Source: a virus | Taxonomy: Duplodnaviria > Caudoviricetes | Virus record (IMG/VR): IMGVR_UViG_3300023070_000001 | Location: 1-64,000 of that record | DNA length: 64,000 nt | Direction: 5' to 3' (one strand) | Shown: piece by piece, positions 2,415 through 40,939 of the stretch | Numbering within the stretch: the first letter of the stretch is position 1 | Layout of the letters: each line of letters starts with the position of its first letter | The notes under the pieces: model-generated | What the model was told of the DNA's origin: nothing | The model's database searches: none | What the model saw: the letters and a program-made list of their open reading frames with translations, nothing else | Position numbers and translations under genes: made by a program

Positions 2415-2496
2415 TACGAGCCGTGGGACTTGAACCCACCTGGACCAACTACGGCATTATAATCCCCCGCTTATAAGACGGGACCGGTACACTCGC
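2415..2496 (-). tRNA. atypical tRNA-Ile(TAT): no D-arm, extended variable arm
   Basis: CCCGT-CT-TAT-AA-GCGGG anticodon arm, GTGGG-TTCAAGT-CCCAC T-arm, GCGAGT/GCTCGT acceptor, only 7 nt where the D-arm should be. Confidence 0.65.
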
Positions 2497-4632: not shown

Positions 4633-4712
4633 ATAGGGAGGGCGAGTCTCTTGCACGACTCCGGGATCACCAGGCTTCCAGAATTACAGCAGAATTGAAC
4701 TGCTCCCTCTAT
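4633..4712 (-). ncRNA. candidate tRNA-like ncRNA with T-arm preceding D-arm
   Basis: AGCAG-TTCAATT-CTGCT, then GGA-AGCCTGGTGA-TCC, then GAGTC/GACTC hairpin, closed by GAGGG/CCCTC. Confidence 0.4.
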
Positions 4713-11665: not shown

Positions 11666-11666
11666 G

Positions 11667-11824: not shown

Positions 11825-11936
11825 AGTACAGCTTCAGGTCTCAGACTATTATGAACCAATGTCCTGTCTTTAGGACTGCAAGCTGTGCTACCATTACACT
11901 AAGTACCGGGAGATTTGACTTCCCAGCTCGGGTACT
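11825..11936 (-). ncRNA. candidate tRNA-like RNA with an exact D-arm but no downstream T-arm
   Basis: TAGTGTAATGGTAGCAC D-arm, AGCTT/AAGCT stem enclosing two hairpins, GGTAC/GTACT closing stem. Confidence 0.35.
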
Positions 11937-11961
11937 GACCCCGCTCTTGCTCGTAACTACG

Positions 11962-11990
11962 ATCTTACATTACCTGGCAAGTTCTGTCAA
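11962..11990 (-). promoter_or_regulatory. promoter TTGACA-N17-TAAGAT
   Basis: Consensus match. Confidence 0.75.
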
Positions 11991-11996
11991 GTCGCT

Positions 11997-12155
11997 TTAG
12001 CGATAAAACCAAGGAACCTGCTTGAGTAATTCATTTACCTTAGCATTAAGTTCACGATACTTAGGTGTTTCAACACTACCCTTAGGCAACCCAGCACAAT
12101 AATCATTTAGCTTTTTGCGAGCTGCCTTAAGGGCCTTAACTTTATCATTTGCCAT
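11997..12155 (-). CDS. 52-aa basic helical microprotein
   Basis: Hand-translated MANDKVKALKAARKKL...; RBS upstream. Confidence 0.55.
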   Translation of the reverse strand: MANDKVKALKAARKKLNDYCAGLPKGSVETPKYRELNAKVNELLKQVPWFYR

Positions 12156-12323
12156 TTAGCACTTCCCTGGTTTATGTAGAGCAATACATTTACGACAGTT
12201 TACCTCTTCAATACCGTCAATGTATCGCAAACATATATCACCATCAGCAAATATAGCTGAACGGAAAAGCCCACACTTGGATTTATGCTTTGTACCGAAT
12301 TTTCCGCCATGTATAATTCTCAT
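12156..12323 (-). CDS. 55-aa His/Cys microprotein (IH..CG...VNCRKC)
   Basis: Hand-translated; paralog-like to 48-191 and 188-337. Confidence 0.55.
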   Translation of the reverse strand: MRIIHGGKFGTKHKSKCGLFRSAIFADGDICLRYIDGIEEVNCRKCIALHKPGKC

Positions 12324-12460
12324 TAGCGAACCTTTGCGCTACAGAAACAAATGCAGGGTTTCTTTTCTGTACGTGAAATACAAGCTTCACGTGGATGGGT
12401 ATCATTAGTACAAGGCCAGCAAACTGTAACCTTTTCCTTTTTCTTCTTTTTAAATCCCAT
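12323..12460 (-). CDS. 45-aa Cys-rich basic microprotein
   Basis: Hand-translated CWPC...H...C...CICFC; ATG directly after the closing stem of the 12462-12589 RNA. Confidence 0.55.
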   Translation of the reverse strand: MGFKKKKKEKVTVCWPCTNDTHPREACISRTEKKPCICFCSAKVR

Positions 12461-12461
12461 G

Positions 12462-12589
12462 CGTGAGTGCGGCGCTACGAATATCCGCTTCTGCTACTCT
12501 CTTTCGCCTACTAGGTTCGGGCCTGCCTGTAACGGCCAGCCCTACTACGATCAGCTCCGATTTCGCTATGTTACTATACACTAACTCAC
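12462..12589 (-). ncRNA. candidate tRNA-framed structured RNA (~128 nt)
   Basis: GTGAGT/ACTCAC closing stem, TA-GTGT-ATAGTA-ACAT D-like arm, internal hairpins, GCGG/CCGC arm with TTCGTAG loop. Confidence 0.4.
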
Positions 12590-12642
12590 TCATCAGGGTA
12601 ATTACTCCTGATGCAACATAAGGTTGATCAGACCTTAATGCG

Positions 12643-12763
12643 TGGACTGAGAGGGATTCGAACCCTGCCTACACGTGATTGCTCCTAGCATCTAAAATAA
12701 TTCTGACAGATTGTACTGTAGCTATCAGCGTCTAGCAGAATCAAATAGAAGCGTTGTCAGCCC
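12643..12763 (-). ncRNA. mini tmRNA-like RNA (alanine-identity tRNA-like domain, ~121 nt)
   Basis: GGGCTGA/TCAGTCC acceptor with G3-U70 and A73, stemless D-loop, AGGG-TTCGAAT-CCCT T-arm, no anticodon arm, internal frame TAGAC|GCT...TAG. Confidence 0.55.
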
Positions 12764-12858
12764 AAGTTCTGAAGAATGGTAGTATTGGCTCGCTTACTAC
12801 CCATCCTTATCCCTTAACTTAGAATCGATAAGCGAGTGTTAATTCTAAGCTTACAGAG

Positions 12859-12931
12859 TGGACATTAGCCGTATCGAACGGCTCAGGACGTTCCCCTATG
12901 AAAGCAGGAGCCCTGCCGACCTTAGATGCCC
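12859..12931 (-). tRNA. atypical tRNA-like gene (G3-U70 acceptor, ambiguous TTC anticodon loop)
   Basis: GGGCAT/ATGTCC-A acceptor, AGCCG-TTCGATA-CGGCT T-arm, weak D-stem, 6-7 nt loop CTTTCA(T). Confidence 0.4.
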
Positions 12932-13001
12932 ATGTGCTGGTTCAAACATTGTTTTCGCAATGGAGGAAGGTTGTACCAGCAACTCCGTCCCTGTTAGCTC
13001 T

Positions 13002-13030
13002 AGCCTAACACCTCGCTAGTGGGCTGTCAA
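13002..13030 (-). promoter_or_regulatory. promoter TTGACA-N17-TAGGCT
   Basis: Consensus match upstream of the atypical RNA cluster. Confidence 0.75.
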
Positions 13031-13206
13031 GTAGCGGGCTCAGCTCCACATAGCATGTTCTGACATCTAATACCTTCCCAATCTCCACCATCATGTATCC
13101 ACCCGGTAGATGAATAGTCAGCCTTGACTATTAGATGCCCGCAGTTCTTACAGCTTTTCTTTCGTTTATTTATTTTATCCCAGTACTTAGCGTCAAACTT
13201 ATCCAT
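13027..13206 (-). CDS. small Cys-containing protein (CKNCGH...W.H...C..C)
   Basis: ORF in an operon. Confidence 0.55.
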   Translation of the reverse strand: MDKFDAKYWDKINKRKKSCKNCGHLIVKADYSSTGWIHDGGDWEGIRCQNMLCGAEPAT

Positions 13207-13633
13207 AGATATCAAACTCGTTTTCATATAGGAATGTTTCTGTAGCTATTCCAGCAGCTTTAGCTAGGTCTCTACAACTAGTAGCGCCCTTGGACTTGTT
13301 CCTGATGAAAGCGAGACATATATCTGGGTTAGTATTAACCATAAGTTTATTACGTCTAAACCCTGCGCTTTTACCGAAGCTAGCCCAATTAGCATCATGC
13401 CTTTCGACATTCACACGCATTACTTGAGTAGCAAAGTTATCTGCTATAGCATCTGCACCACGAGGACAGTTACCATGTACGATAGTTAACCAATCAATCG
13501 GACCTTTCTCAAGCCCTGGATGATCCTTGATCCAATCTATCACAGCTTCAACGATTCTACCAGAAACACTTTCATATAGGTCCCAGTCTCGGGAGCCTGT
13601 TATCAGTAACCTCATGTACCACACCTTAGACAT
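13199..13633 (-). CDS. SLOG-family protein (DUF2493/YspA-like)
   Basis: LLITGSRDW, IVHG..RGADAIA, ANW..GKSAGFRRN.LMV. Confidence 0.85.
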   Translation of the reverse strand: MSKVWYMRLLITGSRDWDLYESVSGRIVEAVIDWIKDHPGLEKGPIDWLTIVHGNCPRGADAIADNFATQVMRVNVERHDANWASFGKSAGFRRNKLMVNTNPDICLAFIRNKSKGATSCRDLAKAAGIATETFLYENEFDIYG

Positions 13634-13839
13634 GCATACTCTACTAGATCGCCACAATCAACACATAGAGCTTTTTCGCATACAGGGCAGTTACCTTTAG
13701 CATCTAAATATCTAACTCCGCAAGGGCGCTCTTTATAAGCTCCGCATAGAGTTAGCTTAGGGCTACACAGGCAAACAATATGGCAGAATGAAACATTGTC
13801 ATCTGTAATTTGTGGCTTATCTAATACTGCACCTTGCAT
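13612..13839 (-). CDS. Cys-rich hypothetical protein
   Basis: 75 aa, multiple CxxC. Confidence 0.55.
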   Translation of the reverse strand: MQGAVLDKPQITDDNVSFCHIVCLCSPKLTLCGAYKERPCGVRYLDAKGNCPVCEKALCVDCGDLVEYACLRCGT

Positions 13840-22691: not shown

Positions 22692-22809
22692 GTAAGAGTA
22701 AAGTGAAAGGAATTGAACCTTTCCAGCGGGTGCCCCCAATTTGGCTTAGCCTTAGTACCATACCTAAGCAGGAATCGAACCTGTTACTGCCATTTACTTC
22801 ACTCTTTAC
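22692..22809 (-). ncRNA. candidate RNA with two T-arms
   Basis: CAGG-TTCGATT-CCTG and GAAAGG-TTCAATT-CCTTTC inside a long closing stem. Confidence 0.5.
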
Positions 22810-24881: not shown

Positions 24882-25074
24882 AAAACCTAAGGATATCTAT
24901 TTGTGTATTTGATATCAATCTGTTAAATAAAACCTACAGAATAACTTAGGTAGTTGTTGCAAAGATTATGGTCTCTGTCCTTAGCAGCTTTGTCAGAGAC
25001 TTGCTGGGGATCGCTATAGCATACATAAGCCCTTCCCCTCCAGCGACATTATCCGGTCTGCATAATCTATTGCG

Positions 25075-25145
25075 AGCGGATAGCCGGGTTCGAACCGGCG
25101 AGAAATGATTGGAAATCACTTATGTTACCACTACATCATATCCGC
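25075..25145 (-). tRNA. tRNA-Gly(TCC)
   Basis: Canonical cloverleaf, U73. Confidence 0.92.
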
Positions 25146-32664: not shown

Positions 32665-33549
32665 CTAGAGACCGTTAAGTAGATCCTCTAGGTCTACAGC
32701 ATCCTGCTTATTACGAGGCTTCTCTTCTACCTTAGTAGCTGATGCCTTAGTGTCGTTATCTAGTAGGCCCTCAAGACCAGCATCTAGATTACGCTCAGCG
32801 CCTACTAGATTATCGCTATTAGTCTCACTTGCCTGGCCGTTAACTACACGCCAGCGAGCACGAATCTTATCTAGGTCATCCTCAAGGTATTCAACCTTCT
32901 TGACAACGCGACCTAGGAATGGCTCAAGGTCTTCAACCTTATTCTCTTCAATAATCTCATCAAAGAGATCCTGGTTCTCATCCTTCTTTACCATACTAGA
33001 AGGAATGATCTTGTACTTCTGGAATAGCTGGTTCTCACAAGGACCGAGAATAACATCGATCTTAGATAGATCCTTGTTAGGTGCCTCATCACGAAGGTCA
33101 GCAATTTCATTGAACTTCTTATCAGTGAATGCCCAAATCTTAACTGAACCCTGGAAGCTCTTAGTAGGCTTTGAAGTTCCGTTAGTTGCGTACTGGAAAA
33201 CGTGCATTGCGAAACGACGCTTAGGACGCTGGAACTGGTCAGGGTTAGTCTCTGCTGCCTTACATGCAGGGCAGTTCTTGGGGTCCATACCACGATCCTG
33301 AAGAATATCAGGCTTACCTAGGCAGATGGGATTTCCTACAAAATCAAATTCCATCTCTTCACCCTTAGGGCCTGACTTGTACTTAGGCATACCATTTACT
33401 AGAGTAGGCATACGTAGGTTGTGAACATAACCTACATCAGGTGCCTCGTAAATGTGAATACGAGCTGTCTCATCCTGGACTAGCTTTAGTCGGGGAAACT
33501 GCTCTGAACTTGCTGACTTGTTCTCTGAACTGAAGGACATCTTAGCCAT
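32665..33549 (-). CDS. single-stranded DNA-binding protein (gp32-like, acidic tail)
   Basis: Aromatic-rich OB-type core, C..D...CPAC zinc site, C-terminal DLEDLLNGL. Confidence 0.7.
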   Translation of the reverse strand: MAKMSFSSENKSASSEQFPRLKLVQDETARIHIYEAPDVGYVHNLRMPTLVNGMPKYKSGPKGEEMEFDFVGNPICLGKPDILQDRGMDPKNCPACKAAETNPDQFQRPKRRFAMHVFQYATNGTSKPTKSFQGSVKIWAFTDKKFNEIADLRDEAPNKDLSKIDVILGPCENQLFQKYKIIPSSMVKKDENQDLFDEIIEENKVEDLEPFLGRVVKKVEYLEDDLDKIRARWRVVNGQASETNSDNLVGAERNLDAGLEGLLDNDTKASATKVEEKPRNKQDAVDLEDLLNGL

Positions 33550-40609: not shown

Positions 40610-40939
40610 CTACTTCCCTGGTGTGATCAGTTTACTTCGAGCGGCAGCTACACCTTGAGTAAGCTGCATCTGACGAATCTCTTTTAGTAGATCCTCAATA
40701 AAGTTCTTCTTACGAGTTTCAAGGTTATGCTGGAAAATCAACTTTGCTTCACGGGAGGCTAGTACAGTCTCAACAAGAGCCTCCACCTTAAGAAGAGCTA
40801 AGATTTCAGGCCCCAGCGGAATACCCTGATTAGCTAGATTCTCGATTCTAGCAACATTACTTTGGCTTAGCTGGTCTATTGTTTTTTGAGCTTCATCTAA
40901 ATCTGCTAAGAATTTAGCAGTGTTTTCCTTATCTGACAT
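40610..40939 (-). CDS. helical hypothetical protein
   Basis: 109-aa ORF. Confidence 0.65.
   Translation of the reverse strand: MSDKENTAKFLADLDEAQKTIDQLSQSNVARIENLANQGIPLGPEILALLKVEALVETVLASREAKLIFQHNLETRKKNFIEDLLKEIRQMQLTQGVAAARSKLITPGK

Follow-up and report, generated by a model that had tools for sequence, protein, structure and literature searches.

Does a 121-nt stretch within a phage tRNA array encode a miniature tmRNA, or a tRNA mimic of some other kind? The question goes back to an earlier note, made without database searches, which had read this element (here termed E2) as a tmRNA-like RNA with alanine identity and a tag frame lacking the ALAA degron, and had offered two roles for it: rescue of ribosomes without degradation of the product, or a decoy that blunts host trans-translation. 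The window analysed here, a stretch of 64,000 nt, covers the initial 64 kb of a phage record of 77 kb in IMG/VR, whose completeness is estimated at 57%; its G+C content is 43%. ARAGORN identified 26 tRNA genes in the window, 26 of 26 on the minus strand, and a family-A DNA polymerase, helicases and tail genes are encoded as well. E2 lies in an ORF-free, modular stretch (12460–13027), with no ORF of at least 30 aa over it and no ORF start directly after it; no promoter or terminator consensus was found in 11900–13700 around it. Nearly all tRNAs of the window phage end in N73-C without an encoded CCA, and so do E2 and a second tRNA-like RNA on its upstream side, E1. The coordinates of these and other features are collected in Table 1.

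Table 1. Features at and around the E2 locus, with the relatives and the Streptomyces phage element used for comparison
Feature	Location	Strand	Details and basis
E2, anticodon-less alanine-type tRNA-like element, 121 nt	12643..12763	(−)	Sequence, fold, descriptor scan
E2 acceptor 5′ strand	12757–12763	(−)	GGGCTGA
E2 interior, 90 nt	12667–12756	(−)	Sequence
E2 long irregular hairpin	12667..12752	(−)	MFE structure, retained in context fold
Putative tag frame in E2, GCT..TGC-TAG	12685..12729 including stop	(−)	14 codons, ADSYSTICQNYFRC-stop; TAGAC directly before
E2 T-arm	12651–12667	(−)	AGGG-TTCGAAT-CCCT, then C
E2 acceptor 3′ strand	12644–12650	(−)	TCAGTCC
E2 discriminator A73; C74	12643; 12642	(−)	Sequence
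Spacer between E1 and E2, 95 nt, two hairpins	12764..12858	(−)	Folds at −23.7 kcal/mol (z = −2.0); the C that follows the E1 discriminator lies at 12858
E1, tRNA-like RNA, 73 nt	12859..12931	(−)	95 nt upstream of E2; conserved in G002 and G003
H0 leader hairpin, GCTGGT...ACCAGC	12936..12980	(−)	Ends 4–5 nt before the E1 5′ end; kept in relatives; alignments, context fold
HP1 (12619–12637) and HP2 (12591–12613) hairpins	12591..12637	(−)	Downstream of E2; read by eye, alignment minus the 215-nt block
E3, tRNA-like frame, 128 nt	12462..12589	(−)	Acceptor GTGAGT/ACTCAC, D-arm, roughly 75-nt interior, weak T-like arm
SLOG-family protein gene, 152 aa	13199–13657	(−)	Upstream of the RNA cluster; Pfam YAcAr, E = 4.8e-10
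True tRNAs with a discriminator-C-ATG junction	Ends at 11666, 14201, 25611, 1442		
Unassigned T-arm hairpins, window	2423–2439, 2507–2523, 4688–4704, 22706–22722	(−)	Examples; many more in G002 and G003
Relative G002	IMGVR_UViG_3300020156_000022		105 kb; covers the locus
Relative G003	IMGVR_UViG_3300023074_000001		135.6 kb, complete, terminal repeats; covers the locus
BE-cluster mini-TLD example, phage CeilingFan	PV165877, 85816–85893 (L346:317–394)		Between tRNA-Val and tRNA-Leu

For comparison, we turned to related genomes. Microbacterium phage Magritte was the closest GenBank phage, with a polymerase identity of 37%. Within IMG/VR, one relative (G001) shares 99% polymerase identity, its contig stopping short of the E2 locus, and two further relatives, G002 and G003, cover it. 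The window phage, G002 and G003 are nearly equidistant from one another (polymerase identity 74–77%). Remoter relatives, at 36–43% polymerase identity and about 130–140 kb in size, have a G+C content of 61–67%. A neighbour-protein search with the SLOG protein encoded upstream of the RNA cluster found no loci; in G003, an ORF judged by eye to resemble this gene stands at the equivalent position (L025:16515–16937). We rejected a split gene at the locus, as the 152-aa protein encoded upstream consists of an entire SLOG/YAcAr domain and is no truncated GTPase.

Direct reading of E2 confirmed the structural marks that the earlier note had listed. All seven acceptor pairs form, G3:U70 among them, A73 follows as the discriminator base, the T-arm carries a canonical T-loop, and there is neither a D stem nor an anticodon arm. 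The mismatch noted at the base of the T stem is also real, namely C49·C65 beneath 4 bp. The stretch that follows the acceptor strand (CAACGCTTCTA) has no GG, and a tRNA-like elbow is therefore doubtful. When E2 was folded alone, the acceptor stem closed a long irregular hairpin with the T-arm alongside (MFE −36.6 kcal/mol); relative to shuffles, this fold has z = −1.88, with 6 of 200 shuffled sequences folding equally well. Closure by the acceptor was retained in a 546-nt context fold, in the MFE and centroid structures alike. The hairpin sits where a tmRNA has helix P2 and its message, or a tRNA its D and anticodon arms, and its 3′ side meets the T-arm directly, with no linker. The predicted fold thus consists of one hairpin and a T-arm in 121 nt and has no space for a pseudoknot, as had been anticipated.

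A descriptor for alanine-type elements (GGG start, G3:U70, A73, T-arm and at least 6 of 7 acceptor pairs) matched only tRNA-Ala, E1, E2 and one spurious frame in the whole 77-kb record, and block shuffles of three genomes yielded about 0.15 matches. Given a T-arm followed by NNNNTCCA, a rough estimate puts at roughly 8% the chance of finding a GGG-started partner with 7 of 7 pairs within 420 nt.

The earlier note had named Rfam covariance models for tmRNA and mt-tmRNA and the tmRNA mode of ARAGORN as checks, and both came back empty for E2. ARAGORN made no call at default settings or in relaxed tmRNA mode, Rfam gave no match at the gathering score, an 801-nt search at E ≤ 10 gave none to E2 or E1, and RF00023 (tmRNA) and RF02544 (mt-tmRNA) had no match at E ≤ 10 in the whole record. 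As positive controls, RF00023 recovered the 281-nt tmRNA of Streptomyces phage CeilingFan at 94.7 bits and that of Bxz1 at 73.9 bits. It also recovered message-less forms, the TLD-only RNA of Mycobacterium phage DS6A at 34.7 bits and the CeilingFan mini-TLD at 33.6–42 bits; the scores of 34.7 and 33.6 bits come from searches of similar size to that for E2. Because RF00023 scores TLD-only forms and nothing for E2, E2 fails a test that known message-less forms pass. Neither the tmRNA D-loop (GG...CGAC) nor a local match to the ends of the tmRNA model (positions 1–29 and 334–374) was present in E2. Of the proposal that E2 is tmRNA-like, the architecture of a tRNA-like domain with one helix therefore survives, and membership in the tmRNA family does not.

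Two further covariance models were compared with E2. R1, built from three E1 orthologs, gave with filters off a trivial 2.4-bit match to GGG...UCCA. R2, the model of the Streptomyces mini-TLDs, scored ordinary tRNAs at 10–29 bits, did not match E1, and reached only the T-arm of E2, on which ground we rejected E2 as a member of that family. Other candidates were likewise set aside. For a full-length or permuted tmRNA over the 570-nt gap, ARAGORN at thresholds of 70–80% returned junk 'permuted' calls and Rfam returned none; a tmRNA assembled across modules was rejected, the acceptor strands pairing inside each module and not between modules. The sole relaxed ARAGORN call at E2 was an intron-bearing tRNA-Lys with a 77-nt intron, a different 5′ end and a mismatched acceptor, which we rejected as implausible, and no Rfam match to a group I intron, ROOL or GOLLD was found at the locus.

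We then considered the putative tag. The frame that the earlier note had described, following TAGAC, is present at 12729–12685 and translates as ADSYSTICQNYFRC-stop. Its TAGAC-GCT start resembles UAGUC-GCA, the resume context of E. coli tmRNA. In tmRNA, positions −6 to +1 matter for setting the frame (PMC3985003). Controls place these features in proportion: a closed frame of at least 14 codons starting with GCN occurred in 38% of shuffles of the E2 interior, and the motif UAR-NN-GCN alone in 30%. The motif combined with a stop-closed frame of at least 8 codons was found in 6.6% of interior shuffles and in 1.8% of natural 90-nt windows on the same strand. The frame, which was picked post hoc, is weakly unusual (2–7% of controls) and at most suggestive. 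It has no ALAA-like hydrophobic C-terminal end, and it lies within the predicted hairpin with its start paired. With these properties, and with no homolog found, the tag and ribosome-rescue reading is not supported.

E1, the neighbour on the upstream side, provided a clearer picture. Its acceptor, GGGCATC/AATGTCC, contains G3:U70 and is followed by A73, and it has no anticodon. A 9-nt D-like loop containing GG leads into a 6-bp stem (CAGGGC/GTCCTG), whose cap varies between the phages (6-nt loop in the window, UUCG tetraloop in G002, another form again in G003); the T-arm, AGCCG-TTCGATA-CGGCT, abuts this central stem directly. In the alignment of the three phages, 5 of 18 consensus pairs show compensatory changes (4:69 and four pairs of the T stem), and G3:U70 is kept in 3/3. 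In G003, the D-loop GG has become GA and C56 has become U, an apparent replacement of G19:C56 by A19:U56. ARAGORN calls E1 only when its threshold is set to 80%, and then assigns it an 'anticodon' loop of 6 nt. Model R1 scored 80–91 bits in the window phage, G002 and G003 only, and nothing in seven remoter relatives (polymerase identity 36–68%) and Magritte. For further E1 loci in IMG/VR, a tighter pattern returned only G002 and G003, and a loose one 118 chance matches; in metagenomes, the only further locus among the matches listed was the source contig of G002. Judged by these substitutions, E1 demonstrates selection in this clade on tRNA-like RNAs of the alanine type that have no anticodon. 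The solid finding at this locus is therefore E1, a better-supported example of what the earlier note had proposed than E2 itself.

The distribution of E2 is different. In G002 and G003, the sequence after E1 (CACGC-TTAAGG...) is the sequence that follows E2 in the window, so the window has an extra 215 nt. This block, which runs from 12857 downwards and comprises the spacer and E2, is absent from both relatives and has a direct repeat, GTCCAC, on either side. As the three phages stand at equal distances from one another, a gain in the window lineage is just as economical as a microhomology-mediated loss in G002 and G003. Against 10 related genomes, blastn and nhmmer searches with the block matched generic T-loops only; in IMG/VR, an exact 24-mer and a three-anchor pattern of E2 each had 0 matches. 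E2 with compensatory changes was not found in relatives, G002 and G003 being without E2. The termini of E1 and E2 are identical (GGGC...GTCCAC), and pairs 5:68, 6:67 and 7:66 differ between them on both sides, 3/3 being paired in E2. From these termini and pairs, E2 is most likely a diverged sister or duplicate of E1.

Other modules surround the pair. Downstream of E2, the stems of HP1 and HP2 covary among the three phages (e.g. AAGG/CCTT versus TCAG/CTGA; by eye). The acceptor and D stems of the E3 frame also covary in the three-phage alignment, and G002 has a perfect T-arm here, ACAGG-TTCAATT-CCTGT. E3 ends in ...ACTCAC-G-C-ATG, the next ORF starting right after it, and both G002 and G003 retain the junction E3-G-C-ATGG despite unrelated downstream ORFs. 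The same arrangement, discriminator-C-ATG of the next ORF, was observed after tRNA-Pro, tRNA-Glu(ttc), tRNA-Asp and tRNA-Ser. These junctions fit mRNA 5′ ends generated by tRNA 3′ processing.

The tRNA arrays of the window phage, G002 and G003 contain many unrecognised tRNA-like elements. Perfect T-arm hairpins outside called tRNAs were enriched on the tRNA strand in each of the three phages, numbering 6 on that strand versus 1 on the other in the window, 17 versus 6 in G002 and 9 versus 7 in G003. In G002, a 113-nt tRNA-like frame at 24976–25088 (−) (L032:4976–5088), 5 nt from tRNA-Ile(tat), has the ends GGCAGTG...CACTGCC and the T-arm GCAGG-TTCGAGA-CCTGC, with three hairpins replacing the D and anticodon arms. 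Two alanine-type frames, of 80 nt in G003 (81819–81898, −) and of 118 nt in G010 (IMGVR_UViG_3300045451_000008, 113523–113640, +), combine a GGG start, G3:U70, A73 and a T-arm, and neither received a default ARAGORN call; no homologs of these two were found in the sampled genomes, so that they could not serve as a family. An element conserved between G002 (40610–40700, −) and G003 (33030–33105, +) starts with AGTGAG like the E3 region, has a perfect T-arm and ends in ...TCCA, with no obvious 5′ acceptor partner.

We tentatively favour the view that E2 is a tRNA mimic of the alanine type, oversized, specific to its lineage and without an anticodon, that is probably excised and charged and that acts, if at all, like the TLD-only decoys. 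Its processing, charging and decoy activity we infer as follows. The acceptor/T-arm minihelix, closing an 86-nt hairpin in the middle of the phage tRNA array, would be transcribed together with that array; RNase P would cut at G12763, and tRNA 3′-processing enzymes would trim after A12643. Completed with CCA, E2 would then be charged with alanine, because G3:U70 and A73 in a 7-bp stem suffice for AlaRS. Since it has no anticodon it could not decode and, by analogy, if functional it would most likely compete, without decoding, for factors that act on Ala-tmRNA or Ala-tRNA (SmpB, AlaRS, EF-Tu).

A rather unlikely account is that E2 is a relic or an accident: a duplicate, now decaying, of either E1 or a tRNA, or the remnant of a T-arm with a complementary 7-mer upstream by chance, carried as a functionless passenger in a fast-changing array. 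E2 is indeed a singleton whose block is missing in both relatives that cover the locus; its T stem is mismatched, its D-loop GG is gone and no covariance model matches it. Odd tRNA-like pieces are also numerous in these phages, and the fold z of E2 is only −1.9. Against this, the acceptor stem and T-loop are perfect, the alanine marks and the N73-C74 context are intact, the termini equal those of E1 despite both-sided changes at the three inner acceptor pairs, and closure holds in the context fold. The absence from relatives itself cuts both ways, as the GTCCAC repeats permit loss there as readily as gain in the window. It is also unlikely, and somewhat more so, that E2, like E1 and E3, is tRNA-shaped punctuation with no task other than recruiting RNase P and the 3′ enzymes, its alanine marks being incidental; the resulting cuts in the long array transcript would release or stabilise neighbouring structured RNAs and the downstream leaderless mRNA. 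The missing promoter and terminator consensus, the C-ATG of an ORF directly after E3 and several true tRNAs, and the conserved hairpins beside the modules all agree with such a role. But E1 keeps G3:U70 and A73 in 3/3 phages though its pair 4:69 changes, which a mere handle would not need, and E2 does not stand before an ORF start and is dispensed with in the relatives.

Most ambitious is the reading of E2 as a working, pseudoknot-free mini-tmRNA, in which Ala-E2 with SmpB would enter a stalled ribosome, resume at GCU 12729, add (A)ADSYSTICQNYFRC and stop at UAG, leaving no proteolysis signal. Its topology, a TLD with one helix and a loop holding a closed frame, is what such a molecule might have, TAGAC-GCT is like the E. 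coli context, and the motif with a closed frame is found in just 2–7% of controls. We nevertheless regard it as very improbable. True phage tmRNAs and TLD-only RNAs (about 34 bits) are recovered by the tmRNA model that gives nothing on E2; the frame start is paired in the predicted hairpin, and a pseudoknot and a hydrophobic end to the tag are both missing. E2 also lacks a GG in the D-loop for the elbow with which SmpB makes contact, and there is no homolog in which codon conservation could be read for this post hoc frame. The fuller version, in which E2 would be a working 121-nt tmRNA adding a non-degradable ADSYSTICQNYFRC tail and E1 its message-less partner or competitor, is barely credible. 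If the tmRNA reading were true, the phage would rescue ribosomes without destruction of its products.

On the preferred reading of E2 as an alanine-type mimic, the locus bears on a wider pattern. Alanine-type tRNA mimics without a message seem to form a class of phage RNA that recurs and is hardly ever annotated, with instances in DS6A, in 82 Streptomyces phages and in the E1 clade. To these, the locus adds a conserved member that is invisible to the tmRNA model (E1) and an oversized orphan with a long hairpin in the message position (E2). If E2 is expressed and charged, it would show how far the scaffold can be stretched and would offer a natural test of the need for tmRNA pseudoknots; if it is a relic, it shows how fast tRNA-like modules are gained and lost in arrays.

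Compared with its nearest neighbour, E2 shares with E1 identical termini, G3:U70, A73, a central helix that joins the T-arm without a linker, and the same strand at a distance of 95 nt, whereas E1 is only 64–73 nt long and has the D-loop GG, a short capped 6-bp helix and conservation backed by covariation. With the tmRNAs of RF00023 and RF02544, E2 has in common the tRNA-like domain architecture and alanine identity; unlike the RF00023 tmRNA, it lacks pseudoknots and a tag end of the ALAA type, and the models do not match it. Minihelix-Ala, a synthetic molecule attributed to Francklyn and Schimmel (1989), is reportedly a substrate of AlaRS, G3:U70 being said to suffice for its alanylation. E2 likewise has an acceptor/T-arm helix with G3:U70, but it is a natural gene with a large extra hairpin. 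Loss of the tag and of the pseudoknots is also seen in jakobid mitochondrial tmRNAs (PMC3985003).

Among phages, Streptomyces BE-cluster genomes encode a TLD-only RNA of 77–78 nt, never annotated and shared by 82 phages in conserved form; the same genomes also have a full tmRNA of 281 nt, whose tag is ANSNVASAYALAA. Nine representatives of this mini-TLD show 7 compensatory pairs, G3:U70 in 9/9, an invariant 16-nt loop (AAAGCCGACAATGGA) and A73. Like E2, it lies inside a large phage tRNA array and has G3:U70, A73, no anticodon and a single helix, and the BE-cluster genomes, at about 130 kb, are comparable in size and likewise carry many tRNAs. In contrast to E2, it is conserved in 82 phages and the tmRNA model matches it (33.6–42 bits).

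The closest published precedent, and one that lends substance to the decoy alternative of the earlier note, is DS6A, listed by Hudson et al. 2014 as 'Mycobacterium phage DS6A (TLD only)'; a molecule similar to the DS6A TLD strongly inhibits tmRNA whether chargeable or not, perhaps via SmpB titration (PMC4131195). In a 2025 paper on the tmRNA database, the 'Standard, no CDS' forms number nine, and inhibition of the endogenous E. coli tmRNA by the DS6A form is stated again (PMC11915505). The DS6A RNA (tmID 11587), of about 83 nt, retains both the D-loop of tmRNA (UGGUGGUCGAC) and a linker ahead of its T-arm, whereas E2, at 121 nt, has a 90-nt interior with a closed 14-codon frame, no D-loop GG and a mismatched T stem. 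Both are phage-encoded, with a G3:U70 and A73 acceptor, a T-arm and no anticodon arm, and both carry a single helix in place of the message and pseudoknots, on a scaffold that in DS6A is proposed to compete with host tmRNA, perhaps by titrating SmpB.
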